From positions 8,527 through 72,526 of the forward strand of contig REBL01000110.1 in assembly GCA_007692755.1 (NCBI GenBank): a stretch of 64,000 nucleotides of DNA. The letters run 5' to 3'. Numbering within the stretch: the stretch's first letter is position 1; every line of letters starts with the position of its first letter. Of the stretch, positions 1,384-16,957 are shown one piece after another. The DNA is from Nodularia sp. (in: cyanobacteria) (GTDB taxonomy: Bacteria > Cyanobacteriota > Cyanobacteriia > Cyanobacteriales > Nostocaceae). The translations under genes were made by a program, and so were the position numbers. Under the pieces are notes generated by a model that saw only the letters and a program-made list of their open reading frames with translations, made no database searches and was not told the origin of the DNA.

Positions 1384-2109
1384 ATGTCTCATTACCAAAT
1401 GAACAATGAATCGAAAGTTGTAGACAGTTGTCCAGGTAAATTCTTAACGCCTTTTCAATTGAGGCTTTTGCAGAAAGGTCTACAAAAAAATCTACCTGAT
1501 TCCTATCGTCAGCGCATTGAAATTATGCTACTAGCAGACCAGGGGAAATCTCAAACAGCAATTTGTAAAACTTTAGGTTGTTGTCCAGCAACAGTCAGAC
1601 ATTGGACGCATATAGCCCGTACTGGTATGGCGCATCAATGGCAAGATTGTCCCATTGGTCGCCCGAAAGCAGTCAACGAGGAATACTTGGAACGGTTAAA
1701 AGAACTGGTTTTAAATAGTCCTCGCGATTACGGCTATGCTTTTCGCCGCTGGACAGCCAACTGGCTTCAAAAACATTTGGCTAAAGAATTTGGGATTGAA
1801 GTGAGCGATCGCCATATCAAGCGACTGCTTAAACAAATGGGATTATCTACGCGACCAAAAACCAATAACCAGCCAGAAGCAGGATCTGAAAATACGAAAA
1901 GTTCCAGCATATTGATTCACGACCTGAAATCCGACAACATCCCCGAACATATCGGATTTCTGCCTATTCAATTCGCAAAACTAGGTATGGAGTCAGAAAC
2001 TTATGGTGCAAAATCTATCCGATCCTGTGGTTTTCTTACAACAGTTGAACCATGCATTAGGTCATTCACTGGGCGAAGCGGAATTTCAGCGCTACTACCA
2101 ACAATTTAA
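1384..2109 (+). CDS. Helix-turn-helix protein resembling the DNA-binding N-terminus of IS630/Tc1-type transposases (no DDE domain); possible cluster regulator
   Basis: The HTH is LLADQGKSQTAICKTLGCCPATVRHW. A second winged-helix segment is RRWTANWLQKHLAKEFGIEVSDRHIKRLLKQMGLS. No catalytic domain follows. The last 107 nt overlap the exporter ORF in another frame, so the real C-terminus is uncertain. Confidence 0.55.
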   Translation: MSHYQMNNESKVVDSCPGKFLTPFQLRLLQKGLQKNLPDSYRQRIEIMLLADQGKSQTAICKTLGCCPATVRHWTHIARTGMAHQWQDCPIGRPKAVNEEYLERLKELVLNSPRDYGYAFRRWTANWLQKHLAKEFGIEVSDRHIKRLLKQMGLSTRPKTNNQPEAGSENTKSSSILIHDLKSDNIPEHIGFLPIQFAKLGMESETYGAKSIRSCGFLTTVEPCIRSFTGRSGISALLPTI

Positions 2110-4723
2110 ATTTCTCAGCCCGAAAGTCGGAAAGTTTTGGCAAGGAGAAGATACAGAAGCTGGAGTATATATTGCGATCGCTGGCAAAGTCAGGTTGTTA
2201 AATGATCAGGGAGAGCTAATTACCACTTTGGGATCTGGAGAGTCTTTTGGGGAATTTACCTTATTCCCAGAGGCTAACTTCCAACCCTATGGGGCTAGAG
2301 CAAGTGTTAATTTACAACTATGCTTTATTCCCGCCGCAGTTTTATCGGCCTTGATGATTAAATATCCTTCAATTAAAGAGCATTTACTAGCTAAGGCAAA
2401 TGCCAATAATTCGCTGCTGGTGGGTTCCGATCAATCACCTCAACACAATAAAACCGAAATTCCCTCAGCACCAGTCATACCAGTTACAGAACCTCAGCTA
2501 GACAAAAAACTTAGCAAAGCTTACTTTCCCAGTCCTAACCAGCGAGTTGGACATTTATTACAACGAACAATTCGCCGTTACCCATTTTTTAACCAACAAA
2601 GTGCATCAGATTGTGGTGCAGCTTGTTTAGTCATGGTGTCTCGTTATTGGGGTAAACGCTTTAGTGTGAATCGCTTACGGGATATCGCTAATGTTGACCG
2701 CAATGGTGCATCTTTGCGTGGTTTATCCACAGCAGCAGAAAGTATTGGGTTTAGCACACGACCAGTAAAAGCCAGCCTAGATCAGTTAGCCAAGCAAAAA
2801 CTACCAGCCATTGTTCACTGGGAAGGCAAACATTACATTGTGGTTTATGAAATTACCCAGAAATCTGTGATTGTCGCCGACCCAGCAATTGGTCAACGGA
2901 CTCTGAGTCATGCTGAATTTAAAGCAAATTGGACTGGCTATACACTGCTGCTGCAACCCACAGCCTTTTTAAAAGATACCAAAGACACGATAACTCCCTT
3001 CTGGCAATTCTTTGAACTACTCAAGCCTCACAGCTTGGTCATGTTGGAAGTATTTGCCGCATCTGTGTTTATTCAGATATTTGGACTGATTACCCCTTTA
3101 TTCACTCAGTTAATTTTAGATAGGGTAGTAGTACAGCGTTCTGAACTCACCTTATTTGCCGTCGGTTTAGGATTACTAATTTTTAGTTTATTCCGTGTAG
3201 CAATGATGGGTTTGCGGCAATATTTATTAGACCACACGGCTAATAAAATAGATGTGGCATTAATCGTGGCATTTATTCGCCATACTCTGCGCCTACCCCT
3301 CAGTTACTTTGAGTCCCGTTATGTGGGGGATATTACCTCTCGCGTCCAAGAAAATCGCAAAATTCAACGTTTTCTTTCTGGTGAAGCATTATCTATCCTG
3401 CTAGATTTACTCACTGTTTTTATCTATCTAGGATTGATGTTTTGGTATAGCTGGAAAATGGCATTGTTATCCTTAGTAATTGTGCCACCTTTTGTGCTAT
3501 TAGCTTTGGTTGCCACACCTTTTTTACGCAAAATTTCCAGAGAGATTTTTAATGCCTATGCCACTGAAAGTAGTTATCTAATTGAAGCTCTTTCTGGTGT
3601 CAGAACAGTGAAGTCTACGGCAGTAGAACAGACAGTGCGTTGGCATTGGGAAGAGTTATTGCATAAGGAAATTAAAACTGGTTTTTCTGGACAGATTATT
3701 GGTAATCGCCTGCAAATATTTAGTAATTCTATTCACGCAATTGTTACGACTACTTTACTGTGGTTTGGGGCATATCAAGTAATTCACAATCAGTTAACTA
3801 TTGGTCAGTTAGTAGCATTTAATATGCTCTTAGGAAATGTAATTGCACCATTTCAGCGATTAACAGTTTTGTGGAGTGAATTACAAGAAGTCACCATTGC
3901 AGTAGAGCGGATTAATGATGTATTAGATGCAGAACCAGAAGAGGACTTACAGCATCAAGCTAGGCAATCTTTACCACCAATTAAAGGACATATTCACTTT
4001 GACAATGTGACATTCCGCTATCATCAAGAAAGTGATATTAACGTTTTAGAAAACCTCAGTTTTAGGGTTAAACCAGGACAGATGGTGGCTTTAGTCGGTC
4101 GTAGTGGTTCAGGAAAGACAACTATTTCTAAGTTAGCTTTGGGGTTGTATCCGCCTACAGATGGCAAAGTCTTAATTGATGGACAAGATATTACTAGCCT
4201 TTCCTTACGTTCCTTACGGGAACAAGTTGGGGTAGTTGACCAAGATACTTTTCTATTTGGCGGCACAATTCGAGAGAATATTAGCTTAGGATATCCTGGG
4301 GCAAAATTAGAAGAAATTATTGAAGCCGCCACATTAGCGGGTGCTGATGAGTTTATCAAAAAAATGCCTATGGGCTATGAAAGTCAAATCGGTGAAGGTG
4401 GGGGAATGTTGTCTGGTGGACAACGACAAAGAATTGCGATCGCGAGAGCATTATTAGGCAATCCTCAATTGTTAATTTTAGATGAGGCTACTTCCCATTT
4501 AGACGCTGAATCAGAGCGAATTATTCAGAGTAATTTAAATATCATCCTCAAGGGAAGAACCACATTAGTAATTGCTCATCGTCTCTCAACTGTACGTAAT
4601 GCAGATTTAATCTTAGTGCTGGATCGAGGTGTGCTAATCGAGAGTGGTACTCACGAAGAGTTAATGGCTAAACGGGGACATTATTTTTATCTGAATCACC
4701 AGCAATTAGATAACGCAGCCTAA
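2003..4723 (+). CDS. Bacteriocin/RiPP exporter: cyclic-nucleotide-binding domain + C39 peptidase + ABC transporter (TMD + NBD)
   Basis: N-terminal cNMP fold (GESFGEFTLF ... GARASV). C39 catalytic Cys (QQSASDCGAACLVMVSRYWG) and His (GKHYIVVYE). Multi-helix TMD. Walker A GRSGSGKTT, signature LSGGQRQRIAIARAL, Walker B LLILDEATS, H-loop IAHRLST. Confidence 0.9.
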   Translation: MVQNLSDPVVFLQQLNHALGHSLGEAEFQRYYQQFKFLSPKVGKFWQGEDTEAGVYIAIAGKVRLLNDQGELITTLGSGESFGEFTLFPEANFQPYGARASVNLQLCFIPAAVLSALMIKYPSIKEHLLAKANANNSLLVGSDQSPQHNKTEIPSAPVIPVTEPQLDKKLSKAYFPSPNQRVGHLLQRTIRRYPFFNQQSASDCGAACLVMVSRYWGKRFSVNRLRDIANVDRNGASLRGLSTAAESIGFSTRPVKASLDQLAKQKLPAIVHWEGKHYIVVYEITQKSVIVADPAIGQRTLSHAEFKANWTGYTLLLQPTAFLKDTKDTITPFWQFFELLKPHSLVMLEVFAASVFIQIFGLITPLFTQLILDRVVVQRSELTLFAVGLGLLIFSLFRVAMMGLRQYLLDHTANKIDVALIVAFIRHTLRLPLSYFESRYVGDITSRVQENRKIQRFLSGEALSILLDLLTVFIYLGLMFWYSWKMALLSLVIVPPFVLLALVATPFLRKISREIFNAYATESSYLIEALSGVRTVKSTAVEQTVRWHWEELLHKEIKTGFSGQIIGNRLQIFSNSIHAIVTTTLLWFGAYQVIHNQLTIGQLVAFNMLLGNVIAPFQRLTVLWSELQEVTIAVERINDVLDAEPEEDLQHQARQSLPPIKGHIHFDNVTFRYHQESDINVLENLSFRVKPGQMVALVGRSGSGKTTISKLALGLYPPTDGKVLIDGQDITSLSLRSLREQVGVVDQDTFLFGGTIRENISLGYPGAKLEEIIEAATLAGADEFIKKMPMGYESQIGEGGGMLSGGQRQRIAIARALLGNPQLLILDEATSHLDAESERIIQSNLNIILKGRTTLVIAHRLSTVRNADLILVLDRGVLIESGTHEELMAKRGHYFYLNHQQLDNAA

Positions 4724-4774
4724 CCCAAGCTAATTTTCAATTTTTCACATCCATCATTAATCTTCAGAGAAGTT

Positions 4775-6355
4775 ATGACAGATACATTAAATGGACAAGT
4801 AAAAAACCAACTTCATGAAGATGGAATCTATCAGGAAGTTTTAACACCTCAAAATCCAGCTATTTCTAAACCAGAACTTAATCAGGAAACGAGAACATCT
4901 CAGACATCAGCTATAGCCATCTCAACTGATGATTGGTCTCATGTTACCAAAGATTTGCTTGATAGCTTACCACAAGTTTGGACAAGAGGATTACTATACT
5001 TTTTAATTATTTTTGTAGCGATTATTTTACCTTGGGCAATGTTTTCGCGCGTAGATGAAACAGGTGTAGCTAGAGGCAGATTAGAACCCCAAGGTAAGAC
5101 GGTGAGACTGGATGCTCCTGTTGCTGGAACTGTTGCCGAAATTCAAGTTAAAGAGGGTGATATAGTTAAGAATGGACAGATTTTGTTAGTATTGGAATCT
5201 GAATTAGTCCAAGCCGAGTTACGACAGGTAAAAGACAGGTTAGAAGGGCAATTAAATAGGCGATCGCAGTTAAATTTATTACAGAGCCAGTTAATTGTAG
5301 CTTTAGCCACTCAAGAACAACAAAATCAATCTCAAGAGTTAGAAAAACAATCTCAAATAGACCAAGCCAGACAGAACTTGAATGCTATTAGAAGTTCATC
5401 TAATTTACAAAAAGAAGAAAAATTATCTCAGGTCAATCAAGCACAGCAAACAGTTGAATATAGTCAAACTGCTAACAACTTAATAGCAAGTAGTTTAGCC
5501 AGTACCCAACGAGAAGTTAACCGCTACCGTCAACTTTGGGAAGAAGAAGTAATTCCAGAAATTACAGTTATAGAAAAACAAGATATTGCTAAAGAACAGC
5601 AAAGATTGTATGAACAGAGTAAATCAGATATTCGGCAAGCTAAGTTAAGGTTAGCAGAACAACAGAGTAGTTATGAACGGACTCTTAGTCAATTTAATGC
5701 CGATATTGAACAGGCTAAATTACGGCTTAATGAACAAGAAAATAGTTATCAGACAGTAACTCATGTGGGTAAACTTGCGGTACTCAAAACTCAGGAACAA
5801 TTAAAAAATATAGATACAGAAATTTCCACACTCAATGCAGAAATTGCACAAACTCAAAGCCAAATTCAGTCTTTAGAGTTTCAAATAAGTCAACGAGTTT
5901 TAAAAGCAAACGTGAATGGTACTGTATTTCAGTTACCAATTGAAAAAGCTGGTTCTGTAGTTCAGCCAGGCACAATGATTGCCGAAATTGCCCCAATAGA
6001 TTCGCCTTTAATTATTAGAGCGCAAATGGCTACAACTGAGAGCGGTTCTTTACAAAAAGGATTACCCGTTAAGCTCAAATTCGATGCTTATCCTTTCCAA
6101 GATTATGGAGTTATTGCCGGCGAATTACTAGAAATTTCTCCGACGACAACAGAAATAGATACACCTAGCGGAAGAGTAGCGGCGTATAACTTAGAAATTG
6201 CGATGAATCAGCATTGTATTCCTAGTCGTGATCAATGTATTCCCTTAAATCCTGGGGATACTGCAACTGCTGAAGTGATAGTGCGTCAGCGTCGCATTAT
6301 TGATTTTATCCTTGATCCATTTAAGAAATTACAACAAGGAGGAGTGAAATTATAA
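4775..6355 (+). CDS. HlyD-family periplasmic adaptor / secretion protein partnered with the C39 exporter
   Basis: N-terminal TM helix (LLYFLIIFVAIILPWAMF), lipoyl-like hairpin (VAEIQVKEGDIVKNGQILLVLE), a long Q/E-rich coiled coil and a C-terminal barrel. It starts 51 nt after the exporter stop. Confidence 0.85.
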   Translation: MTDTLNGQVKNQLHEDGIYQEVLTPQNPAISKPELNQETRTSQTSAIAISTDDWSHVTKDLLDSLPQVWTRGLLYFLIIFVAIILPWAMFSRVDETGVARGRLEPQGKTVRLDAPVAGTVAEIQVKEGDIVKNGQILLVLESELVQAELRQVKDRLEGQLNRRSQLNLLQSQLIVALATQEQQNQSQELEKQSQIDQARQNLNAIRSSSNLQKEEKLSQVNQAQQTVEYSQTANNLIASSLASTQREVNRYRQLWEEEVIPEITVIEKQDIAKEQQRLYEQSKSDIRQAKLRLAEQQSSYERTLSQFNADIEQAKLRLNEQENSYQTVTHVGKLAVLKTQEQLKNIDTEISTLNAEIAQTQSQIQSLEFQISQRVLKANVNGTVFQLPIEKAGSVVQPGTMIAEIAPIDSPLIIRAQMATTESGSLQKGLPVKLKFDAYPFQDYGVIAGELLEISPTTTEIDTPSGRVAAYNLEIAMNQHCIPSRDQCIPLNPGDTATAEVIVRQRRIIDFILDPFKKLQQGGVKL

Positions 6356-6440
6356 ATATTCTCATAGTTACTTAACGCTTTTAAGCACCAACTAAGCGAA
6401 AAACTTGTTTAGCATTACGTTAATTTATTGGAAACAACTC

Positions 6441-7187
6441 ATGTCAGAAAATGTAACTATTACCACTGAAGATATTCTGCATCAAATCAAATTATCTTGC
6501 AAAATTCCCGATATAGTCAAGGAAAGTATTACTCGCAAAATTATTAAAAATGCTGCCATTGAGGCAGATATAAAGGTTGAGACAGAAGAACTTCAAAGAT
6601 CAGCAGACCAAATTCGGCTAATCAACAAACTCAATAGTGCTGATGATACCTGGAAATGGTTGGAAAAAAATGGTTTGTCCCTAGATGACTTTGAAGAAAT
6701 AGTCTACGATACTGTGATTTCTGGAAAGTTAGCTGCTCATCTGATGGCGGATAAGGTCGAAGCTTATTTTTATGAGAATCAACTTGATTATTTTGGTGTG
6801 GTGATTTACGAAGTTGTACTAGATAATGAGGATTTAGCGCTAGAACTTTTCTATGCGATTCAAGAAGGTGAAATGAGCTTCTATGATGTTGCTCACAAAT
6901 ATATTCAAGATACAGAGTTGCGGCGTAAAGGAGGATATTTAGGTAGAGTGAATCGTCAGGATTTAAGACCAGAAATTTCTGCTGCTGTTTTTGCAGCTAC
7001 ACCACCACAGCTTCTCAAACCGATATTAACTTCTAAAGGAGTTCATTTGATTTTGGTGGAAGAGATAATTCCAGCAGAATTAAATAACTTATTACGTTTT
7101 CAAATCTTGTCAGATTTGTTTGGTGAATGGCTGAAGCCACAAATTGAAGATGTAGAATATTACACTAACCTGAAGCTAAATAACTAA
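6441..7187 (+). CDS. Parvulin-type peptidyl-prolyl isomerase with SurA-N-like helical domain (copy 1)
   Basis: C-terminal rotamase signature RRKGGYLGRVNRQDL ... TSKGVHLILVEE. I place the start at ATG 6441 rather than the TTG at 6405 used by the ORF track. Confidence 0.7.
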   Translation: MSENVTITTEDILHQIKLSCKIPDIVKESITRKIIKNAAIEADIKVETEELQRSADQIRLINKLNSADDTWKWLEKNGLSLDDFEEIVYDTVISGKLAAHLMADKVEAYFYENQLDYFGVVIYEVVLDNEDLALELFYAIQEGEMSFYDVAHKYIQDTELRRKGGYLGRVNRQDLRPEISAAVFAATPPQLLKPILTSKGVHLILVEEIIPAELNNLLRFQILSDLFGEWLKPQIEDVEYYTNLKLNN

Positions 7188-7771
7188 GCAGGTGGGCGTA
7201 AATAAGTTTAACTATAGAACTATTATTGATTTTTGTTGGCATAGCCTAGCTAAAGCTCTGCTTTAAGCGTTCGCGTAGCGTCTTGGAGAGGAGAGGGTTG
7301 TCATTTGTCCTTTGTCATTGCTAATGATTTGAGGATTTTTGACTTTCCTTGACATAATTTTATTTATTCCTACTGACTATCTTGTAGGTGTTTTGTTCTC
7401 ATAAATTTTTGCTTTTTATAATTGTTCCAACTCTGTGCGCTTTTTTAAATGATATTTAAATTTTGAAGACATTCGCCACAAAACTTGTAGATTTTTATAT
7501 CTAAAATCAGGACAAAAATGATGCACTTAATGTATGACTATTTCATTTATTCATGTAATTGCTATGCGGTTATATGAATATTTTAGAGCAACCCGCTACT
7601 AAATTAGGCTTGTGTATACGAATTTAGTAAATGAAATAACTGTAACAATTATATCCATCTATTAGATTCAAAATGCTTGTTTAATAGAATTTGATTCTAG
7701 ATAATAAGAATGAAATTGAACAATAAATTGTTTAATTCCAAGTAAAAGCTGAAAAATCCAGGAGTTTCAAA

Positions 7772-7978
7772 ATGGCTTCCATTACAGTTTCTAATCTTTA
7801 TCCACTTGGCTCTGATCTATTCATGGATTCTGAGAGCTTTATGGATGCATTGAATGATAACGAACTTGCTGAAATCAATGGTGGAGTAACACCAGCAGTG
7901 ATTACCACAATTGCTACCAAGTGGTTTATTGGTGCTGCTGTTGGTGGTGCTATCGTTGGTAGCATCATTTATTGGTAA
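7772..7978 (+). CDS. Double-glycine-leader precursor peptide A1 (38-aa leader, 30-aa Cys-free hydrophobic core)
   Basis: AGGAG lies 8 nt upstream of the ATG. The leader ...GSDLFMDSESFMDALNDNELAEINGG ends in the canonical L-x-x-x-E-L-x-x-I-x-GG. The core is VTPAVITTIATKWFIGAAVGGAIVGSIIYW, with G-x-x-x-G-type motifs, 4 Thr, 1 Ser and no Cys. Confidence 0.8.
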   Translation: MASITVSNLYPLGSDLFMDSESFMDALNDNELAEINGGVTPAVITTIATKWFIGAAVGGAIVGSIIYW

Positions 7979-8054
7979 TAGCAATAGCAATAGCTTCCCT
8001 GGCGAACTATCCCTCCACTCATATCAATTCTACTGAACATAACGGAGAACAATC

Positions 8055-8270
8055 ATGTCAACAATTAATATCCAAGATATCAAAGTAGCCGGTTCTGATC
8101 TATTTTTTGACGAAGAAACCTATCTAAATGAGCTTTCTCATGATGAGATAGGGGCTGCTAAAGGTGGTATCACTCCCACTGTTGCTGGAACTATTGCACT
8201 CAGCAGTGCTTTTGTACTCAGCTACAACCTGAGCAAAATTGGTACTGAATTGAAGAACAAATTTTTCTAA
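8055..8270 (+). CDS. Double-glycine-leader precursor peptide A2 (38-aa leader, 33-aa Cys-free core)
   Basis: GGAGAA RBS. The leader ...GSDLFFDEETYLNELSHDEIGAAKGG shares the GSDLF-x-D-x-E box and exact length with A1. The core ITPTVAGTIALSSAFVLSYNLSKIGTELKNKFF shares the N-terminal (V/I)TP(A/T)V motif. Confidence 0.8.
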   Translation: MSTINIQDIKVAGSDLFFDEETYLNELSHDEIGAAKGGITPTVAGTIALSSAFVLSYNLSKIGTELKNKFF

Positions 8271-8455
8271 AAAATATGTGCTTGAGTAGACAATAATACA
8301 CAAAATTAATTGTTTACTTAGGTTAAATTTTTAAACAAAGGATGTGAGAGTTACAATTACCTTAACAATACTAGGTTGACTAACTCTCAATTCCTTACTT
8401 CTTCAGAATCAAACACTGTGGTGTTTATCATTAGCCCTCACTTACAAAGGCAATT

Positions 8456-8710
8456 ATGAACTTCAATGATTTTCCAACTGTTATGTCTATAATTGCTTTA
8501 CTAATAGGTATAACATTTTTAATTTTGTCTGATTACATAGCGGCTGGCGTGTGGCTATGTTATGGTTTAGCGACATTATTAGTTAATAAAGTTGGTTCAT
8601 CTAATATGGATAATTTTAGCCGTATAGATGTAATAATTGCTTGGGCTACAATTGTCAGTTTTATTAGTTTATTGTTGTTTCAGCTACACAGGGATTTCGT
8701 TGCTAGATAG
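8456..8710 (+). CDS. Small integral membrane protein (candidate immunity protein)
   Basis: 84 aa dominated by hydrophobic helices (VMSIIALLIGITFLILSDYIAAGVWLCYGLATLLV; IIAWATIVSFISLLLFQL). It sits directly after the two precursor genes, and its stop is 10 nt before the kinase ATG. Confidence 0.5.
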   Translation: MNFNDFPTVMSIIALLIGITFLILSDYIAAGVWLCYGLATLLVNKVGSSNMDNFSRIDVIIAWATIVSFISLLLFQLHRDFVAR

Positions 8711-8720: not shown

Positions 8721-9899
8721 ATGATATTTGCATTAAGCTCTCAAAATGTTTTTGATTATTTAGTTACACACCAGATATGTCAACTAGAAGAACAACCGAG
8801 TAGTATTGAGATTAAATTTGCTAAAAACTTTAATTTGCTATTGCAGTTGAAAAATGGCTGTCAGCTTTTAGTTAAACAAGAGCGCCACACCCTGGATGGA
8901 AAAACTGCTGGTGAATTTCTCAATGAATGGCGAACTCAAGAGTTATTACGAAAATTTTCAGAATTTGAGGGCATTAAGTCATCATTTCCAGAAGTGCTGT
9001 ATTTTAATGCCATTGATTCAATTATTGTTTTCAATTACCTGGCCGATTATCGTGACTTAAACGATTTTCATATCAAGACAAATATTTTCCCGGCTGAGGT
9101 CGCTACCTTAATTGGAGGCATATTAGCAGAAGTACATCGCACCACAATTAATCATCGAAAATATCAGGAATTTTTGGTTGAGCAACTTAATGGTGAAGCA
9201 AATTTACAGGTTTCCGACTTTACGCGTGGGTTGGAGCGTGTTGAACCTGAAATATTTGGCTTGGTTCCCGCAGATGCTCTGAAATTTTTTGCACTTTATC
9301 AGCGCTATGACAGTCTTGGTCAAGCATTAACAGAACTTTCTGGCGCGTTTACACCTTGCTGTTTGACTCACAATGACTTGAAGTTAAATAACATTTTACT
9401 GCACAATGACTGGGAGCAATTCTTGGGTAGTGCAGAACCAGCTAGGGCTGGGATAATTCGGATCATCGATTGGGAACGCTCCGGTTGGGGAGATCCTGCT
9501 TATGATTTGGGGACTATTATTGCTAGTTACCTGCAAATTTGGCTCAGTAGCTTGGTAATTAGCCAATCTCTAGATATTCAAGCAGCATTACGCCTGGCCA
9601 TAGTACCTTTAGAATATCTACAACCTTCAATAACAGCTTTGATCAAAGCTTATTTTAGTAAATTCCCGGAAATTTTAGAGCATCGCCCAGATTTTTTAAA
9701 ACGTACAATTCAATTTTCAGGACTTGCCTTGATTCAACAAATTCAGGCAATGATTCAATACCAAAAATCCTTTGGTAATGCGGGTATTTTTATGCTGCAA
9801 GTTGCCAAAAGTTTGCTATGTCGTCCAGAGCAATCGATATCGACAGTGTTTGGAATGACAGAGTTAGAGTTGATTAACCTCAGCTACTCTCAAGTCTGA
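8721..9899 (+). CDS. APH / eukaryotic-like protein-kinase-fold phosphotransferase
   Basis: The catalytic loop HNDLKLNNILL matches the H-x-D-L-K-x-x-N type. The metal-binding segment is IRIIDWERSGWGDPAYDLG. The size and layout fit the aminoglycoside-phosphotransferase-family kinases used in class V lanthipeptide clusters. Confidence 0.7.
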   Translation: MIFALSSQNVFDYLVTHQICQLEEQPSSIEIKFAKNFNLLLQLKNGCQLLVKQERHTLDGKTAGEFLNEWRTQELLRKFSEFEGIKSSFPEVLYFNAIDSIIVFNYLADYRDLNDFHIKTNIFPAEVATLIGGILAEVHRTTINHRKYQEFLVEQLNGEANLQVSDFTRGLERVEPEIFGLVPADALKFFALYQRYDSLGQALTELSGAFTPCCLTHNDLKLNNILLHNDWEQFLGSAEPARAGIIRIIDWERSGWGDPAYDLGTIIASYLQIWLSSLVISQSLDIQAALRLAIVPLEYLQPSITALIKAYFSKFPEILEHRPDFLKRTIQFSGLALIQQIQAMIQYQKSFGNAGIFMLQVAKSLLCRPEQSISTVFGMTELELINLSYSQV

Positions 9900-9924
9900 G
9901 TTTCGTTGTTTAACCAAGATTTTT

Positions 9925-11052
9925 ATGCAATTACTGGATTCTCTTCAAAATCAATTACCAGTTAATTTCTCCAATAATGTGCTGGATGCAATCCGAGACA
10001 TTGCGCGCAATGTTCAGTTTCAGTCTAATTTCTGTGTCAGCCATCCAGCATACAAACCTTTGGATTTACCAGAAGAGGTGGTGACTCGATTTCAAAAAGT
10101 ACCTTTAGACCTGCAAAATAAGTATCTAAGTTTGCAATTACGCAGCTTTATTTATGGAATTTATTATAACGGTTCCTTGTGGAATACTCTCGCTTTGGGT
10201 AAAGATTCAAAAGATTTGCTTCTACAACAAAATCTAGAGAACAATACTCTATTGGGAGTAGATTGGGAATTTTATGCCCGACTGCATGAAAGCAATAGTG
10301 GACAAGGTTACTTTGATCCTGGTTGGCAGGTGTTGAAGTTAGAAATTGATGGTGATCTAGTGGTCACGAAGGGTGGATTAAAACTTCATATTAACCGCGA
10401 TCGCCATCTGCAACTCGAAGAACAATCTGCTAACCTGGGAGACATTGTGGCCATCCGCCTCCCACGAAATTTGATTCAAAATGGCTTTTATGTAGCTGTT
10501 GGTAATGCAGGGACAAATAGCCATAAAAAGGCAGAAAATCAGACTCAATTGGTGCGCGTTTACTTCAATTTAGCTCCTGAAGGCGCACCTGCTGTGATGA
10601 AAAATTTAACGCAACACCTCAATGCAGCGTCAATCTTCTTTTCTTTTAAACTTCTCTACAATCCCGCCGACTATACCCGCTTTGATTCAGGTGTTCTCTA
10701 TTTTGAGCGCAGCCATTATGAAACTATGCGCCAAGTCATACAAACAGTGTATACCCAAGAGCGATCGCACTTCCAAAGAGAAATACCTCTATTTACCAAG
10801 TTCCTCGCACCAGGTTTAGGACTAGCCGAAGAACCAAATCATCAGTTTTCTGAACAAGAAAGTTTTGGAATGCATCGGTGTCAAATAGTCAGTAATGGGC
10901 TATTAACAGCGCAGCAATTAGGGGACGAGTCAGAAGATACCAGAATAAACTTGATTCTGGAAGAATTTTCGGCTCTGGGTATTAAGTTAGCACATCCTTA
11001 CTTAAACGCTAATTCGGAAGACATTTATACCCCACTGGACTTATGCGAATAG
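9925..11052 (+). CDS. HopA1-effector-family-like protein (candidate phospho-Ser/Thr lyase)
   Basis: The assignment is by recollection of family features: RVYFNLAPEGAPAVMKNLTQHLN...FSFKLLYNPADYTRFDSGVLYF, about 370 aa, and obligate adjacency to an APH-type kinase. I did not verify it by HMM. The gene is tightly packed between the kinase and the reductase genes. Confidence 0.5.
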   Translation: MQLLDSLQNQLPVNFSNNVLDAIRDIARNVQFQSNFCVSHPAYKPLDLPEEVVTRFQKVPLDLQNKYLSLQLRSFIYGIYYNGSLWNTLALGKDSKDLLLQQNLENNTLLGVDWEFYARLHESNSGQGYFDPGWQVLKLEIDGDLVVTKGGLKLHINRDRHLQLEEQSANLGDIVAIRLPRNLIQNGFYVAVGNAGTNSHKKAENQTQLVRVYFNLAPEGAPAVMKNLTQHLNAASIFFSFKLLYNPADYTRFDSGVLYFERSHYETMRQVIQTVYTQERSHFQREIPLFTKFLAPGLGLAEEPNHQFSEQESFGMHRCQIVSNGLLTAQQLGDESEDTRINLILEEFSALGIKLAHPYLNANSEDIYTPLDLCE

Positions 11053-12056
11053 GCGATTTATCTCAAAAGCCAACAACTGTACTCGGTGAATCAAACCAAT
11101 TAATCGCTAAATTTACCGAGTCAGATATACCTTTTTATCGCCAACTGGGGCGAACTAATTTAAAAGTAAGTTGTCTGGGTTTAGGCGGTGGGGGATCAAT
11201 TTCCAGTGAAGATACCCTTTACGCCTTTGAGCAAGGAATTAATTATTTCTTCTACTCCAGCGATCTGCATCATTTTTTATACAGGTCAATGGCTGATGCT
11301 CTGCGTAAACTCTGCGGACGAGGCTCTTCGGTACGCGAAAAAGTTGTTCTAGCAACAGTCACTTATATTAAAAATCCAGAAATTGTTCTCTCTGCTCTAT
11401 TCGATCAGTTTCAAGAACTGGGTATTGATTACATTGATGTCCTGCATTGGGGTTGGGTAGGAGAAAATGATCACTCAGCTCTGAATAATTGCTTGCAGCT
11501 TTCCCCAGATATCAGAGGTGCAAGTAGCGTTTATCAGCGCACCATTGAAAGAGTATTTGGTGTCTCAGAGCGCCTAAAAAAAATGGGAGCTGTCCGCTAT
11601 GTTGGTGCTTCTTTCCATGACCTCAATTTAGCTCATCAGTGGTTAAATAGCCCTTTGTTAGATGTGGTGATGGTGAGGCATAATGTCGCTCATCGCTCTG
11701 CTCAACATCAAGCCTTTAATTGTTTGAATGTAGCAGATCCACAGCGTCCAGGGATTGTCACATTTAAATCTACAGGCTCTCATACTGGTTCCTTGTGGGA
11801 AGTTCCTCCTAGTTTACCTAGTAATTGCTGGCGACCTAATGTGCCAGATTTATACCGATACTCCTTATCGCAGAATTCTGTTGATGTTTGCCTCATGGGC
11901 TTGCAGCGTCGGGAAGAAATTGATGCTGCGATCGCGGGTGTGCAAAGAGGTAAATTAACTCCTGGTGAGATAGAATACCTCAACTTCTACGGAGATTTAC
12001 ACCGCGATCGCATAAAAATTGGGGATATTCCCCCAGAAAAGTTGATTTACCGATAA
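11043..12056 (+). CDS. Aldo/keto-reductase-like oxidoreductase
   Basis: FYRQLGRTNLKVSCLGLGGG matches the AKR N-terminal Y-x-x-LG-x-T-x-x-x-VS-x-LG-x-G. A (beta/alpha)8-like periodicity follows. The canonical D-T-A..Y catalytic stretch is replaced by GINYFFYSSDLHHFLY, so the tetrad is not confidently identifiable. The ATG overlaps the upstream stop by 10 nt. Confidence 0.55.
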   Translation: MRIGDLSQKPTTVLGESNQLIAKFTESDIPFYRQLGRTNLKVSCLGLGGGGSISSEDTLYAFEQGINYFFYSSDLHHFLYRSMADALRKLCGRGSSVREKVVLATVTYIKNPEIVLSALFDQFQELGIDYIDVLHWGWVGENDHSALNNCLQLSPDIRGASSVYQRTIERVFGVSERLKKMGAVRYVGASFHDLNLAHQWLNSPLLDVVMVRHNVAHRSAQHQAFNCLNVADPQRPGIVTFKSTGSHTGSLWEVPPSLPSNCWRPNVPDLYRYSLSQNSVDVCLMGLQRREEIDAAIAGVQRGKLTPGEIEYLNFYGDLHRDRIKIGDIPPEKLIYR

Positions 12057-12152
12057 ATGAAAGCAACCGCCGATGTGTGGGGTTTACCTACCTCTGGCCG
12101 CAATCTCTAATTTCATTCATCCAAATTGCTCATAATTACAAAGGATAGAGTC

Positions 12153-12890
12153 ATGGTAGAAAGTTTGACAAAACCTTCATCAATTGTCCCAGCCACAGAT
12201 GCAGAAATTTTAGCTTACCTGCGTTATTCTCACAAAATTACTGATATTGCTGCTTTAGTAGAACGAAATACCATAGTTTTACGAGCTTGCGAGAAGTTTA
12301 ATATTATAGTTACCGATGAAGAACTACAAGCAGCCGGAGATACATTTCGTTTAGAACACAAGCTTGTGGGAGCATCAGAAACCTTTAACTGGCTGTCTCA
12401 GCAGCGAATTTCTGTAGAAGATTGGTCTTTAGGCATCAAAATTGACCTTCTTACCAAAAAACTGAAAGAATATCTCTTTGGTATGGAAGTTGACGCTGAT
12501 TACATGAACAACCGCAATGGCTATCGGCGAGTCATGCTATCTCAGATTTTAGTACCTGATTTATCTGATGCCTTAAAAATTGTCCATTTAATTCAAAAAG
12601 AAAATGCTTCTTTTGCAGCCCTAGCTGTAGAATATTCTCAAGGTAAAAAATCTCAAGAAAATGGTGGTTTTGTTGGCTTACATTTGCTAGTAGAATTGAT
12701 GCCAGAAATTGTCCAAGCTCTCACTGATGCAGTAGCAGGAGAAATAATTGGACCAATTTCCAGCCAACTTGGTCATCACATTCTGAGAATTGAAAAATGG
12801 TTCCCTTCTGAACTGACTAATTCAGGTAGGGAAAATATTTTAGAATCTCTTTTCCAAGTTTGGTTACAAAATTTTCGCGCTAATTTTTGA
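12153..12890 (+). CDS. Parvulin-type peptidyl-prolyl isomerase with SurA-N-like domain (copy 2)
   Basis: It has the same architecture as copy 1. The rotamase region is SQENGGFVGLHLLVELMPEIV ... SSQLGHHILRIEK. I place the start at ATG 12153; the track uses the TTG at 12126. Confidence 0.65.
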   Translation: MVESLTKPSSIVPATDAEILAYLRYSHKITDIAALVERNTIVLRACEKFNIIVTDEELQAAGDTFRLEHKLVGASETFNWLSQQRISVEDWSLGIKIDLLTKKLKEYLFGMEVDADYMNNRNGYRRVMLSQILVPDLSDALKIVHLIQKENASFAALAVEYSQGKKSQENGGFVGLHLLVELMPEIVQALTDAVAGEIIGPISSQLGHHILRIEKWFPSELTNSGRENILESLFQVWLQNFRANF

Positions 12891-13211
12891 AATCAGCCAC
12901 TTTTTTAAAGAGTGGAATTTTACTGCCATTTTCTAGCATAAAAATGCCAAAATACGACGTATTTACTTAAAATTCATTTTAAGTGATTTGGCTCATCTTC
13001 TATTCTGTCTAAAGCTTTTTTAGCTCTAAATACAAGTCGTAAATAAGCTAATTGGCTATTCCAAGCTGAACGAGGTAACAGAGGTTCAGGGGAATTTAAC
13101 TCGGCTTGAGTTTGATTGGAGGATGAATCCAAATTACTGTTCATTTCTTTTGTGGACATATTCAGATCAATCAAAAAATTGGTGAACTGGCTTTCAATTA
13201 GAAGCAACTGA

Positions 13212-14456
13212 CTATGGGACTGACTCTGGTTCCTTTTGCCAACTGTCTGACCAATGAACGCGATCGCTTGTAAAATGTAGTGGATCGTTTTCTGGCCAAG
13301 GGGCATCAATCGGTTCTTCAATCAAAGCAAACTCCCCATTATCAAAGGGATTGCCATCGGCTCGACGTTGGAGAAATACTCGTTCTCTCATGCCATTTTT
13401 TTCGTGAGTCAAGGCGCGATGATGACAGTAAGGATTATTCCCGCGCTTGTCAAAAAAGACGTGTGCAGTCCAACTGCAACCACCTCGACACAATTCGGCA
13501 AACTCGCAAGTTTTGCAGAAACCCCAGAGATGATCTGTACCTTGGGGAGTACCAGCACCTAAATTAAACCGCAATTCTTCCGTTTCCTCAATGATGCTTC
13601 GCAAAGAGCGATCGCGGATATTACCACCTGTATAAGCTGAAGTTGGTAATGAAGGACAACCTTTAATCGCCCCATCGGCTTCAATTCCTAAAGCCGAGAG
13701 TCCAGCACTGCATCCCTGCCAAAAAGTCCAAGCATCCCCATCACCTCTTAACAATCGCTCATAGGGGCCGTAGTAACCGATATTATTCCCTGCTTGCAGT
13801 CTGACCCCCTCTTCCTTGGCACGTTTAGCAACACGAGCAATCATCGGATAAACATCCAAGAGTTCGTAAGGTTGCAACAGAATCTCATTATTATCCGCCG
13901 CATTGCCCATCGGTACAGTTAACTGAATCTGCCAAGCAAAAATACCTGCATCCCGGAGATGTTCATATATACTGGGGAATTCTGGTGCAGAAAGGCGATT
14001 GATTTGTGTATTGCAACCAAAAGGAATACCTGCTTGCTTCAGATGACTCATAGTTTTAAAAGCCCATTGCCAAGCACCTTGTTTACCACGGATGCGATCG
14101 TGAGTTGCTTCCAAGCCATCTACAGATACAGAAACTACACCAATACCAGCGGCTTTCATCCGGTGGGCTGTGTCTAAAGTAATTCCATAACCCCCAGTAG
14201 TCATACCACATAGCATTCCCGCTTGGGTAATGGCTTGGGCAATTTCTAACCAATCTGGACGGAGAAACGCTTCACCTCCAATAATAGTTACTTCAGTGAT
14301 GCCAACATCTGCCATTTGTTTAACCATATCCAGGGCTTCTGCTGTGGTCAATTCATTTACCCTAGTTTGTCCAGCACGAGAACCGCAGTGTTGACAAGCA
14401 AGATTGCATTTTAATGTAATTTCCCAAACCGCATAGCTAATTCGGCGATAGGTCAT
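13212..14456 (-). CDS. Radical SAM / SPASM-domain peptide maturase (splicease-like candidate)
   Basis: C-x3-C-x2-C at WEITLKCNLACQHCGSRAG. The C-terminal auxiliary-cluster Cys set is CSAG...GCPSLP...CKTCEFAELCRGGCSWTAH...YCHH. It is the last large gene of an operon containing Nif11-leader precursors. Confidence 0.85.
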   Translation of the reverse strand: MTYRRISYAVWEITLKCNLACQHCGSRAGQTRVNELTTAEALDMVKQMADVGITEVTIIGGEAFLRPDWLEIAQAITQAGMLCGMTTGGYGITLDTAHRMKAAGIGVVSVSVDGLEATHDRIRGKQGAWQWAFKTMSHLKQAGIPFGCNTQINRLSAPEFPSIYEHLRDAGIFAWQIQLTVPMGNAADNNEILLQPYELLDVYPMIARVAKRAKEEGVRLQAGNNIGYYGPYERLLRGDGDAWTFWQGCSAGLSALGIEADGAIKGCPSLPTSAYTGGNIRDRSLRSIIEETEELRFNLGAGTPQGTDHLWGFCKTCEFAELCRGGCSWTAHVFFDKRGNNPYCHHRALTHEKNGMRERVFLQRRADGNPFDNGEFALIEEPIDAPWPENDPLHFTSDRVHWSDSWQKEPESVP

Positions 14457-14483
14457 AAAAGTTACCTCTAATTAATTTAGATA

Positions 14484-14509
14484 GGGACGAGTTTCATTTC
14501 ATCCGTCCC
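14484..14509 (-). promoter_or_regulatory. Intercistronic stem-loop between the precursor genes and the rSAM gene
   Basis: GGGACG (14484-14489) pairs with CGTCCC (14504-14509) around a 14-nt loop. It lies between the stop of the Nif11 precursor (14525) and the rSAM start (14456). Confidence 0.3.
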
Positions 14510-14524
14510 CAATACTCTAATTTC

Positions 14525-14872
14525 CTAAAATTCAGAGTTTACAACTCCATACAATGGCTGAGGTTGAGGTTCCCACGGCATAGGTGGCCACGTAATTACC
14601 CCATATAGTGGCCGAATTACAGGCTTGCCCAGAAAGCCACCAAAAACAGCTTCTAGTTCTTTTTCACTCAAATCTTGGAGTTCACCTTTATTAGCAGTGG
14701 ATTCCAACAATTGGATGGTATATTCTTCAAACTCTTGTTGTGTAAAATCGTAACCTGCACTTTGAACTACTTGGCTACATTCATCTTTACTTTGCACACC
14801 TTGTATTTGAGTGCGAAAAGTTTCATCATTTGCTAACTGTTCGTAGAAACCTTTGACGTTTTCTAGAGACAT
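14525..14872 (-). CDS. Nif11-type leader precursor peptide N1 (79-aa leader ending GG, 36-aa core with two L-Y-G motifs)
   Basis: The leader MSLENVKGFYEQLANDETFRTQIQGVQSKDECSQVVQSAGYDFTQQEFEEY...LSEKELEAVFGG is the Nif11 leader family. The core is FLGKPVIRPLYGVITWPPMPWEPQPQPLYGVVNSEF. The LYG codons are at 14600-14608 and 14546-14554. Confidence 0.9.
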   Translation of the reverse strand: MSLENVKGFYEQLANDETFRTQIQGVQSKDECSQVVQSAGYDFTQQEFEEYTIQLLESTANKGELQDLSEKELEAVFGGFLGKPVIRPLYGVITWPPMPWEPQPQPLYGVVNSEF

Positions 14873-14896
14873 AGTTTTATCCTCAAAAAGTCACTT

Positions 14897-15226
14897 TTAA
14901 AGAGTATTTCGTGGCAAAAGATTAATTGGTGGCAACCCATACAGTAAGACCATATAAGGTAATATAGATCCCACAAGTGCTGTAGTTGCACCACCAACAA
15001 CTGCTGCTAATTCTTTTTCACTCAAATCTTGGAGTTCACCTTCATTAGCAGTGGATTCCAATAATTGGAGAGTATATTCTTCAAACTCTTCTTGTGTGAA
15101 ATCGTAGCCAGCACTTTTAACTATTTGGCTACATTCATCTTTACTTGTAGCACCTTGAACTTGAGCGCGGAAATGCTCATCTTTTGCTATTGTTTCGTAG
15201 AAAAATTTGACGTGTTCTAAAGACAT
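14897..15226 (-). CDS. Nif11-type leader precursor peptide N2 (79-aa leader ending GG, 30-aa core with one L-Y-G motif)
   Basis: The leader closely matches N1 by eye (MSLEHVKFFYETIAKDEHFRAQVQG...LSEKELAAVVGG). The core ATTALVGSILPYMVLLYGLPPINLLPRNTL is unrelated. The LYG codons are at 14936-14944. Confidence 0.9.
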   Translation of the reverse strand: MSLEHVKFFYETIAKDEHFRAQVQGATSKDECSQIVKSAGYDFTQEEFEEYTLQLLESTANEGELQDLSEKELAAVVGGATTALVGSILPYMVLLYGLPPINLLPRNTL

Positions 15227-15258
15227 ATTCTGCTCCTAAAATAGAATTGTAAATTGGC

Positions 15259-15696
15259 TTATCTAGAAATGGGAGTTGCTACATCTACTATGAGGTCAGA
15301 TGCATTGTAGTTATCTGTAATCACTTGCGGGCAACGCTTACAAGCTGCCTTACCTTCTTGTTGCCACCAACGACAATCTCTGCGTATAGAACAGGGAGGA
15401 AGTTCCTCAGCTACCGCAGGTAATTTCTCTACAACTTGCATTGCGAGACGGCAATCTTGTCCATCAAAATGCTGACAGTTTTTAGTCGCGCAAGGTGAAG
15501 CTGTACGGAAGATTTCGGCAGGTGTAATGGGACTAGCTTTGGCTAATAGTTCACTTGTGACAGGCTGTGGCTGCTTGAGATAAGCTACACGAGGTTCTGC
15601 TACAGTTCCACCGATGACTCCAAAGACAACACTATTTACAGATTCTGGCCTAGCACTGGGACAGAGTGTGGTATTTTCAGTAGGCAAATTTTCCAT
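15259..15696 (-). CDS. Small 8-Cys protein of unknown function (candidate rSAM accessory / PlpY-like partner)
   Basis: 145 aa. The Cys pattern is CATKNCQHFDGQDCRLA ... PPCSIRRDCRWWQQEGKAACKRCPQV. It lies between precursor genes in the same operon as the rSAM enzyme. I recognise no enzymatic motif. Confidence 0.5.
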   Translation of the reverse strand: MENLPTENTTLCPSARPESVNSVVFGVIGGTVAEPRVAYLKQPQPVTSELLAKASPITPAEIFRTASPCATKNCQHFDGQDCRLAMQVVEKLPAVAEELPPCSIRRDCRWWQQEGKAACKRCPQVITDNYNASDLIVDVATPISR

Positions 15697-15741
15697 TAAT
15701 CAAGCCTCTAGCAAAGAAACTGTTTTTACTTCAGGCTCAAA

Positions 15742-15996
15742 TTACTTAATTGTTATTGTTGGTGGGATATAAATAATGCCTAGTGTAATTGGAGGACAAA
15801 TAGGGAAGTAACCCGCGATCGCAAACTTTGTCACCAGACCGCCAGAAATATTTGCAGCTTCTTCTTCAGACAAGCCTGACAAAGCTGGTTCGGCATCTAA
15901 TGCTTGGTTTCTTCTTTCTACTGCATTGTTCACAGCATCATCAATCAAATCATTAATTTCAAATTGACTGTGACGCTCACTTTGATTCTTTGCCAT
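15742..15996 (-). CDS. Double-glycine-leader precursor peptide G3 (53-aa non-Nif11 leader, 31-aa Pro-rich core)
   Basis: I place the start at ATG 15996 (MAKNQSERH...), which is preceded by GAGGAAA. The track begins at 16080. The leader ends LSGLSEEEAANISGG. The core is LVTKFAIAGYFPICPPITLGIIYIPPTITIK. Confidence 0.7.
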   Translation of the reverse strand: MAKNQSERHSQFEINDLIDDAVNNAVERRNQALDAEPALSGLSEEEAANISGGLVTKFAIAGYFPICPPITLGIIYIPPTITIK

Positions 15997-16957
15997 TTTG
16001 AATTTCCTCTTTATTTGGGTTTTATTTTTACCACTAAATATAGTGATAGTAGAACTTTTCAAATTATAGAGGAAAGTCAAATTACTTATCTAGTTAACTA
16101 GAGCTTTCTGGAAGATATAAATAAATCATTTATGTCACTAACATTTATTAAAAATTAAGTGTGGAATTCGTTAATGGCTTAAGCTATAGGACTGCAATTT
16201 GATTCTAGAAAATATACTGAGGCTCCAAAGCCCTATTTAACAAGGTTAAAGCTGAAATCACTCTAGTTTTTCGATACAATTTTGTGCATAAACTAAAACA
16301 TTTATGTCCCAATAAACTTTTTGTTGGATCAGCAATTGCCGCTATTAGTCAACACCTGATAGCATCAAAACCCGGATAAATAATGTTTGTTATGTACCTT
16401 GCTAGGGAAATTTAATATTCTGTTCAAACTGAGAATTAAACAATAAATAATATTTTGTTTTGATAACTTTTAGTCAAAAAGTAGTGGTAAATATTACTAG
16501 ATGAATATACAAAGATTGCCTTAATGAAGGATTTTTCCATAGCGATGTACAATAAAACTAACTGCCAAAGGTTCACCCTTACTTCTAGGATCACAGCGAA
16601 GCCACTTTCACCCAAATTGTTGCATCCTGCGGTAAACCTATATGTATTAGAAGTAGGTGATCAACAGCATACCTGTAGGCAACGGAAAAATTGCGTAAAA
16701 CCTGCCTGAAAAAGAGTTAATCAGCTCCTTGGGGCGTGATATTTGGGAATCTCTACAATCACCACAATTTGAGTTTATTTGCAGCTAGTACCGCTGCGCG
16801 GAAGTCAAAAGTCAAAAAGCTTAACTATATAGGCTTGGCATTGATTTTGGATAGTTGTGCTAATTCCGCTGTGCTGGACTAGGATAACCTATCTGCAAAG
16901 ACGACCTATTGACAATTTACCCAAAAGCGTTTCCAGATTTAAAATCTAGAGGAGTCC

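Follow-up and report, generated by a model that had tools for sequence, protein, structure and literature searches.

A probable modular island for ribosomal peptides in Nodularia, with one C39-ABC export cassette and three predicted maturation modules

Organization of the locus

The locus described here lies in a 64,000-nucleotide stretch of the Nodularia sp. contig REBL01000110.1 (assembly GCA_007692755.1), hereafter designated as the window. Between positions 1384 and 16080, the window carries one peptide-export cassette, five genes for precursors whose leaders end in a double glycine (GG), and the genes of three candidate maturation systems for ribosomally made peptides with post-translational modifications (RiPPs). 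These systems comprise an APH-fold kinase with a HopA1-family lyase, a radical S-adenosylmethionine (rSAM) enzyme with two Nif11-leader precursors, and a protein with eight cysteines (8-Cys protein) paired with a precursor hereafter designated as preC. The map of open reading frames (ORFs) indicates that plus-strand and minus-strand genes converge within this segment. A terminator-like hairpin was identified at 12897-12915, 3' of the second of two PpiC genes. Consensus scans for promoters and terminators gave no excess over a shuffled background, and an Rfam scan of positions 1-20000 returned no match.

The ORFs named in an initial annotation of the window were all recovered at their positions by the ORF map and by Pfam and NCBIfam scans. 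Its five GG precursors from three leader families were also confirmed, each having conserved homologues in other genomes, and the leader lengths that it gave (38, 38 and 53 aa) are correct, the last being counted from the ATG at 15996 and not from the TTG at 16080. The elements of its gene list stood, with one amendment in number, as two PpiC-like peptidyl-prolyl isomerase (PPIase) genes were found, the second at 12126-12890. Two ORFs were absent from it: a conserved small ORF at 12974-13207 on the minus strand, and the gene of an 84-aa membrane protein at 8456-8710. The division into two maturation modules had to be revised to three, the 8-Cys protein and the 53-aa-leader peptide forming a unit of their own that is found without the rSAM gene.

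Based on these genes and on their distribution, we regard the segment as probably a modular RiPP/bacteriocin island, in which one export cassette is accompanied by three self-contained maturation modules, each with its own precursor family and core motif. The signatures of the precursor cores are mutually exclusive: Ser/Thr-rich cores accompany the kinase and lyase, [L/I/M]YG motifs the rSAM enzyme, and PPxxxG[LIM][IV] motifs the 8-Cys protein. For comparison, loci from other genomes were collected with either HopA1 (one genome per species) or the 8-Cys protein (genomes and metagenomes, with a 10-sequence alignment for the metagenomes) as anchor, and all proteins of the window were mapped onto the 118 loci obtained (L001 to L118).

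The export cassette and the double-glycine signature

The export cassette is encoded on the plus strand. It begins with the gene of a helix-turn-helix (HTH) protein (1384-2109; matches to HTH_32, HTH_23 and HTH_33), followed by those of a 906-aa exporter (2003-4723), a HlyD-family periplasmic adaptor of type I (4775-6355; TIGR01843, 218 bits, above the cut-off) and a PPIase of the PpiC/parvulin type (6405-7187; Rotamase match, E 2e-11). The latter gene accompanies HlyD and ABC genes in every cassette-bearing locus. The exporter matches cNMP_binding, Peptidase_C39 (145 bits), ABC_membrane and ABC_tran in Pfam, with a cNMP-binding-like region at residues 45-120 and the C39 peptidase at residues 193-320, followed by the transmembrane and nucleotide-binding domains. 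It thus has the peptidase, transmembrane and nucleotide-binding architecture of the peptidase-containing ATP-binding cassette transporters (PCATs), also referred to as ABC transporter maturation and secretion (AMS) proteins, and belongs to their 'long type'. Residues 187-899 align over their full length with PCAT1 (4ry2; E 4e-134), and also with ComA and HlyB. None of the four catalytic residues (Gln, Cys, His and Asp) is missing, the stretches QQSASDCGAACL, HYIVVYE and VADPA aligning with C21, H99 and D115 of PCAT1, which points to an active C39 domain rather than an inactive C39-like domain of the HlyB type. With its catalytic C39 residues, ABC core, HlyD partner and predicted GG-type cleavage, the system resembles PCAT1, LahT and ComA.

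The cNMP_binding match reaches 37 bits for a cut-off of 27.5. By eye, the phosphate-binding-cassette region (FGEF...GARAS) keeps its Glu and Arg and has a longer insert. Gating of the exporter by a cyclic nucleotide is a conjecture from the Pfam match; the literature yielded no functional study of the cNMP domain in any long-type exporter.

The HTH protein has IS630-like N-terminal DNA-binding domains and lacks the transposase catalytic part, the IS630 model being matched over 1-119 of 299. Its gene was found 5' of the ABC gene, with a similar overlap, in at least 12 loci. Because of this conservation upstream of the transporter gene in about a dozen loci, it is considered a member of the export cassette and the protein is probably its regulator. 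The possibility that 1384-2109 is the remnant of a transposase and marks a mobile island was rejected, since the gene is kept with the exporter in these loci. In the window, the last 107 nt of the HTH gene (2003-2109) are shared with the beginning of the ABC gene, which is read in a different frame, and both the gene and an overlap of ca. 100 nt are kept in Nodularia, Calothrix and Nostoc loci.

This type of exporter was already described in 2011. Group I of the cyanobacterial bacteriocin clusters has a long-type transporter with a CAP_ED/cNMP domain, a HlyD protein and a SurA-like rotamase, and group II has the same set plus modification genes (Wang, Fewer, Sivonen 2011; PMC3140520). The cassette and modification genes of the window agree with these definitions, the PPIase of the 6405-7187 type being the 'SurA' of that study (PMC3140520). 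In contrast to the groups of 2011, the window cassette includes a conserved, overlapping HTH gene and adjoins three different maturation systems.

A single exporter set was initially annotated, and the HTH/cNMP-C39-ABC/HlyD/PpiC cassette is indeed the sole set of its kind in 1384-16080; a second C39-ABC gene was not found in the 64-kb window. A second exporter was considered and rejected, as the remaining ABC systems are DevBCA-like and have no C39 peptidase. The whole window was scanned in six frames for leaders ending in GG in which positions -4, -7, -12 and -15 are hydrophobic and -8 or -9 is acidic. Six hits were obtained, five of which are the known precursors and the sixth, at 20799, is likely a chance match. 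The five precursors belong to three families with unrelated N-terminal parts and share the leader end L-S-x-x-E-[LIA]-x-x-[IVA]-x-G-G, their last dozen leader residues being LNDNELAEINGG, LSHDEIGAAKGG, LSEKELEAVFGG, LSEKELAAVVGG and LSEEEAANISGG.

A kinase/lyase module with two preA precursors

The first module is encoded on the plus strand downstream of the cassette. Two adjoining genes specify the precursors preA1 (7772-7978; 30-aa core VTPAVITTIATKWFIGAAVGGAIVGSIIYW) and preA2 (8055-8270; 33-aa core ITPTVAGTIALSSAFVLSYNLSKIGTELKNKFF), each with a 38-aa leader ending in GG. Their leaders are 40% identical, and both cores are hydrophobic, rich in GxxxG and devoid of Cys, a residue found in 14 of 45 related preA cores. 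Precursor preA1 passes the TIGR03949 cut-off (28.9 bits for 21.5) and also matches Bacteriocin_IIc; preA2 has no TIGR03949 match. The preA leader family (consensus M-A-x-I-x-I-S-D-L-x-P-A-G-S-x-L-F-x-D-S-E-S-F-L-x-E-L-...-G-G) adjoins kinase/HopA1 pairs in more than 20 cyanobacterial loci, without exception, and has hypervariable cores. Ser and Thr together make up 19% of preA-family cores, versus 8% of Nif11 cores.

The enzymes of this module are an APH-fold Ser/Thr kinase resembling LanK (8721-9899, plus strand; PF01636, E 1.5e-8) and a HopA1-family phospho-Ser/Thr lyase resembling LanY (9925-11052, plus strand; PF17914, 195 bits). Both have the family matches, adjoining genes and conserved catalytic residues expected of a LanK/LanY pair: K52, E69, H217, D219, N224 and D250 of the kinase do not vary among 34 orthologues, and R211, K242, R252 and Y259 of the HopA1 protein have spacing equal to that of the catalytic R187, K219, R229 and Y236 of CaoY. 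Class V lanthipeptides and thioamitides are dehydrated by a separate APH kinase and HopA1-type lyase, and the cacaoidin version of this dehydratase was reconstituted in vitro (PMC9486802). The window thus resembles the class V pairs of cacaoidin (CaoK/CaoY) and lexapeptide (LxmK/LxmY) and the thioamitide pair TvaC/TvaD (PMC9486802), in all of which the two separate enzymes are encoded beside Ser/Thr-rich precursors. Unlike class V clusters, it has no second APH-fold cyclase, core Cys, decarboxylase or F420 reductase, and it encodes an aldo-keto reductase (AKR)-like protein, a parvulin and GG-type leaders for PCAT export. The locus has a single APH-fold gene, and the LanX-type cyclase is absent. 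Given that the preA cores also lack Cys, lanthionine cannot form, and the module as read from its sequence is a class V-like dehydratase and strictly not a lanthipeptide cluster. Kinase/HopA1 clusters, which receive the antiSMASH label 'lanthipeptide class V', were the commonest predicted RiPP type of cyanobacteria in a recent census (bioRxiv 10.64898/2026.09.06.749771); no characterised cyanobacterial product of such systems was found in the literature.

Between the precursors and the kinase lies the gene of the 84-aa predicted membrane protein (8456-8710, plus strand), which has no family match and homologues 3' of preA genes in L001, L030 and L031. It is a candidate immunity protein for the preA pair. 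Together with this membrane protein, the GxxxG-rich hydrophobic cores and the TIGR03949 match suggest a dehydrated two-peptide bacteriocin with its immunity protein. Class IIb two-peptide bacteriocins of the lactobin A/cerein 7B family (TIGR03949) likewise have two adjoining GG-leader peptides with hydrophobic, GxxxG-rich cores, followed by a small membrane protein. In contrast to these unmodified peptides, the preA peptides travel with a dedicated kinase and lyase, which argues against their being unmodified, and preA2 falls outside the family.

The kinase and lyase genes are followed on the same strand by those of a divergent AKR-like protein (11043-12056; weak Aldo_ket_red match, 26 bits) and of the second PpiC-type PPIase (12126-12890; identified by Pfam and ca. 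30% identical to the first). With 64-89% identity across loci, the former is the best-conserved protein of the module, its gene occurring solely with kinase/HopA1 genes; its best relative in the PDB is 3h7r (E 1e-3). By analogy with LanJ, it might reduce a dehydro-residue to a D-amino acid; a literature search for LanJ proteins of the AKR type returned nothing relevant. The AKR-like and second PpiC genes (11043-12890) are either jointly present or jointly absent, both being missing in L014, L016, L026 and L028, a pattern suggestive of a two-gene sub-module for tailoring that is optional in the kinase/lyase system.

Directly after GG, 14 of 45 preA-family cores start with x-[Ser/Thr]-Pro, as do both cores of the window (VTP at 7886-7894 and ITP at 8169-8177). 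Parvulins of the Pin1 type act at phospho-Ser/Thr-Pro bonds, and it is conceivable that such core starts, encoded near parvulin PPIases, are linked to the kinase step.

A predicted spliceotide system

The second module is encoded on the minus strand. Its rSAM/SPASM enzyme (13212-14456; Radical_SAM and SPASM matches) is a predicted splicease, or X protein, which scores 849 bits with the equivalog TIGR04103 ('nif11-class peptide radical SAM maturase 3'; cut-off 725) and is 77-97% identical in relatives. Two Nif11-leader precursors are encoded beside it, one at 14525-14872 (TIGR03798, 53.6 bits; core FLGKPVIRPLYGVITWPPMPWEPQPQPLYGVVNSEF) with two LYG sites and the other at 14897-15226 (TIGR03798, 52.2 bits; core ATTALVGSILPYMVLLYGLPPINLLPRNTL) with one, giving three sites in total. 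Across all fetched loci, YG was found in 68 of 69 distinct Nif11 cores, against a mean of 16 and a maximum of 27 when the cores were shuffled, and YG is mostly preceded by L, M or I. The leader-coding regions of the two precursors (14637-14890 and 14991-15244) form a 254-nt direct repeat of 84% identity, and the cores have diverged. A conserved leader with a variable core is the usual pattern of duplicated precursors.

The conserved small ORF at 12974-13207 (minus strand) encodes a Y-type protein, which is a candidate splicease activator; its conserved part starts at the Met at 13159 and comprises 61 aa. A helical ORF of 54-67 aa with the motif PLLPR[SL]AWNSQ[LI]AYLR..F[RK]AKKALDRIEKEAG lies directly 3' of the rSAM gene in 12 of 12 loci examined, and 112 homologues were found across cyanobacteria, including genera of the Pleurocapsales type.

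Spliceases excise a tyramine unit at X-Tyr-Gly of precursors with Nif11 or NHLP leaders (PMC11414181, PMC9811515, PMC11626197), and the cyanobacterial type I systems require a small Y protein that binds via an alpha-helix (PMC11414181). By family model, motif and position, the module resembles the type I systems PlpAXY and PcpAXY of Pleurocapsa (Morinaka et al. 2018; PMC11414181), with an rSAM/SPASM enzyme, Nif11-type leaders, the [M/L]-Y-G motif and, as a candidate Y protein, a small helical product encoded beside X. Unlike PlpA3, the window cores are rich in Pro and Trp, and the system shares its locus with an exporter and other modules. Spliceotides have been known since 2018, and native products are still elusive, none having been isolated from any producer (PMC9811515). 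A literature search for TIGR04103 returned nothing relevant.

With an aldo-keto reductase encoded beside an enzyme that makes alpha-keto-amides, a chemically suggestive arrangement (PMC9811515), and with modules that adjoin, it could be argued that the enzymes share peptides in one hybrid pathway, the AKR-like protein reducing the splicease ketoamide and the kinase and lyase dehydrating the Nif11 cores. We consider this very improbable. The AKR-like gene follows kinase/HopA1 in loci devoid of rSAM (L003, L005-L010) and is missing in L014, L016, L026 and L028, where all three modules are present; a role as reducer of the spliceotide ketoamide was rejected on these grounds. The core motifs are segregated as well, as preA cores contain YG about as often as expected by chance and Nif11 cores are poor in Ser/Thr. 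Exclusive core signatures with a shared leader end fit parallel pathways that converge at cleavage and export, and not one hybrid product.

The preC peptide and its 8-Cys partner

The third module, also on the minus strand, consists of the precursor preC (15742-15996), with a 53-aa leader ending in GG and the core LVTKFAIAGYFPICPPITLGIIYIPPTITIK, and the 145-aa 8-Cys protein (15259-15696), a member of an uncharacterised family. The leader helix of the preC family has the pattern EINDLIDDAVNNAV.RRN...GG and the cores carry the motif PPxxxG[LIM][IV], fitted in its loose form by 45 of 73 and sometimes repeated. Such repetition in some cores is as expected for an enzyme recognition site.

The 8-Cys family comprises 1005 clusters at 50% identity (E <= 1e-3). 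In an alignment of 60 sequences with a mean identity of 36%, the eight Cys as well as P13, R64, R105 and W110 are invariant. Profile searches of Pfam, NCBIfam and PDB sequences gave no match, the long forms of the protein included, and the NCBI label is 'nitrogen fixation protein'. From the diverse 60-sequence alignment, AlphaFold2 produced a model with a pLDDT of 94.5 and a pTM of 0.87 (pLDDT 41 with a shallow alignment), for which a Foldseek search of the PDB found no fold match (best E 3.5, TM about 0.2).

A preC-type peptide adjoins the 8-Cys gene, upstream or downstream, in essentially every locus, those of distant members included. The pair occurs without rSAM in several contexts, either by itself (six loci of at least 12 kb) or with kinase/lyase genes only, and it lies beside the export cassette without both rSAM and kinase in Calothrix PCC 7507 (L024). 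Contigs that are GC-rich and apparently not cyanobacterial also carry such a pair, together with a GG peptide and a HlyD gene (L036), and tandem duplicates occur in L067, L069 and L098.

These data bear on the view that the minus-strand operon is one module, in which the 8-Cys protein would be a splicease accessory, such as an Fe-S or electron-transfer helper, and preC a further splicease substrate. Its eight invariant Cys do suit Fe-S binding, sampled rSAM loci usually include an 8-Cys gene, and the commonest gene order is preC, 8-Cys, Nif11, rSAM, Y. Against this, the YG splice motif was found in none of 73 preC cores, rSAM occurs without an 8-Cys gene in Chroococcidiopsis and Stigonema loci (L118 and L002), and the 8-Cys gene, which is invariably tied to a preC-type peptide even in distant members, persists without rSAM in the contexts listed above (L024, L037, L053, L085 and others). 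An accessory role in splicing is therefore judged improbable.

The 8-Cys protein is probably a metalloprotein and might act as a metal-binding maturase or chaperone. In some long forms (P0121, P0122 and P0178), the N-terminus is extended by a stretch similar to the leader helix of preC (…LEDLENAALRARQRAIEARQ…GG…), which may correspond to natural leader-enzyme fusions or to gene-calling read-through. This leader-like extension hints that the 8-Cys protein binds the leader. Tentatively, and with somewhat less than even confidence, we propose that preC and the 8-Cys protein represent a new, widespread class of ribosomal peptides, in which a small metalloprotein of unseen fold recognises the leader helix and modifies or chaperones the PPxxxG[LIM][IV] motif independently of rSAM. 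The pair is the most novel part of the locus and may be new in kind.

Two features were noted among relatives of this pair. Motif repeats of the preC family occur in L032 (9602-9952), L094 and L103, with CPPTVVGLIALPDD present twice and NFPI[IT]AG two to three times. In Calothrix PCC 7507, a GG-leader peptide of another kind, whose core contains two Cys (…KKAVFGG|DCVYASQTYSTNSVVTQGDGNNYVCQSNGTWKWYSFGK), comes after the preC/8-Cys pair at 10865-11076 of L024, where it is annotated as a longer gene of 123 aa.

Co-occurrence of the modules in other genomes

Besides the window, all three modules were found together in eight loci (L001, L014, L016, L026, L028, L030, L031 and L073). Seven of these are at least 12 kb long and all seven carry genes of the export cassette, the eighth (L073) being a shorter metagenome contig. 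They include Calothrix membranacea, which has the order of the window, two Nostoc metagenome-assembled genomes in which the AKR-like and second PpiC genes are missing, Dolichospermum, Nodularia spumigena, Calothrix NIES-2098 and Tolypothrix PCC 7910. All genes are co-directional in the last two, and at least four gene orders are represented.

For loci of at least 12 kb, the content was coded as K (kinase and lyase), A (AKR-like), S (rSAM), C (8-Cys protein) and E (part of the exporter). The combinations were SCE and C (6 loci each), K (5), KAE and KSCE (4 each), KASCE, KE and SC (3 each), and KASE, CE and KCE (1 each), with one more locus matching none of the five. Two C39-ABC genes in one locus were not encountered among the loci mapped. 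The initial annotation had proposed a combinatorial arrangement, and this is borne out by modules that also occur alone or in pairs and by gene orders that vary between loci, the combinations and orders indicating that the modules are separable and recombine around one type of cassette. In Chroococcidiopsis sp. SAG 2025 (L118), the kinase, HopA1, AKR-like, PpiC, Nif11 precursor, rSAM and Y genes form a co-directional array without the 8-Cys pair, and the pairing of kinase/lyase and splicease therefore reaches beyond Nostocales. UniRef and GenBank deposits from PCC strains include, as cluster sequences, proteins homologous to the AKR-like, 8-Cys and Y proteins; such neighbourhoods have thus been encountered before, and no paper interpreting them was found in the literature.

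Comparative genomics also bears on the proposal that one exporter serves different product families. The three modules co-occur with one cassette, and a pattern of separate exporters in all relatives was not seen. Sharing of the exporter by the modules is thus well supported, as far as comparison of sequences goes, and its exclusive use is not borne out. The opposite view holds that the modules are independent neighbours gathered by insertion or recombination, whose products leave via any compatible PCAT of the genome. Each module does occur alone (among loci of at least 12 kb, six have the 8-Cys module only and five the kinase/lyase only), insertion hotspots can yield loci with several clusters (PMC11626197), and Nostocales genomes have 4-14 bacteriocin-type clusters each (PMC3140520). 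Yet joint recurrence of the three modules in at least five genera and in several orders, with cassette genes in all seven loci of at least 12 kb, is at odds with chance neighbourhood, as are the co-directional, operon-like arrays leading into the cassette in L030 and L031 and the identical export signature kept by all leaders. Independent neighbours thus appear unlikely.

Several observations nonetheless weigh against a modular island with a shared exporter as we read it. In L041, L068, L109 and L112, the pair of a GG-leader preC gene and an 8-Cys gene has no exporter within 6 kb, so GG peptides evidently can use exporters in trans, and Nostocales genomes commonly have further exporters of the long type (PMC3140520). 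Frequencies of co-occurrence are biased by the anchored sampling. With the LxmK equivalog model, the kinase scores 74.5 bits, far below the cut-off of 315. We take TIGR04103 to be the family that contains PlpX, and the homology of the rSAM and Y proteins to PlpX and PlpY is predicted by model and motif. In a weak pairwise alignment of the AKR-like protein to 3h7r, D74, Y80 and K110 of the catalytic tetrad are conserved and Phe takes the place of His in 11 of 13 orthologues; with the canonical His missing in most orthologues, a reductase role is a guess.

Elsewhere in the window are systems unrelated to peptide export, namely two DevBCA-like tripartite exporters (36099-39434 and 54809-57426), each with a HlyD-like protein, an FtsX permease and an ABC ATPase, and three adjoining glycosyltransferase genes (47667-51751). 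The closest relative, L033, is a Logan contig from SRR5237282, in which the right flank at 16958-19610 (NYN-domain protein, response regulator and histidine kinase) is 93-97% identical. For several window proteins, the closest named relatives are Nodularia species.

Proposed maturation routes and significance

Under the modular reading, the five precursors would mature in parallel. The APH kinase would phosphorylate Ser/Thr residues of both preA cores and the HopA1 lyase would then eliminate the phosphate to leave dehydro-residues. Linear, dehydrated products resembling two-peptide bacteriocins would be expected from these Cys-free cores, and the AKR-like protein and second PpiC may process them further, for instance by reduction. 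The TIGR04103 splicease and its Y activator would remove a tyramine unit at each [L/I/M]-Y-G of both Nif11 precursors, and preC would be bound through its leader helix by the 8-Cys protein, which would in some manner act on PPxxxG[LIM][IV]. All five modified peptides would finally be cut after GG by the C39 domain while being exported through ABC and HlyD.

Loci of several RiPP classes have precedents, such as the RiPP multi-class biosynthetic gene clusters (multi-BGCs) of Rheinheimera, conserved loci that combine a graspetide and a spliceotide (PMC11626197). Like these (PMC11626197) and like one-to-many systems of the prochlorosin type, the window groups several RiPP classes in an arrangement kept in different strains, with GG leaders and an exporter fused to a peptidase. 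In contrast to them, it combines a dehydratase, a splicease and an 8-Cys pair, in modules shuffled among many cyanobacterial genera. No description of a composite of class V and spliceotide genes was found in the literature. The exporter, dehydratase and splicease are of kinds already known, and the composite is a new combination.

The window offers complete and compact versions of two product classes without characterised members, native spliceotides and the products of cyanobacterial kinase/HopA1 systems. In such compact systems, the GG cleavage sites are defined and the exporter is cognate, which makes the mature products predictable residue by residue. Interchangeable maturation modules with a common export signature at the leader end constitute a template for combinatorial engineering. 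Finally, with its ca. 1000 clusters, its constant pairing with a peptide and a confidently predicted new fold, the 8-Cys family is a concrete lead in the search for new peptide chemistry.

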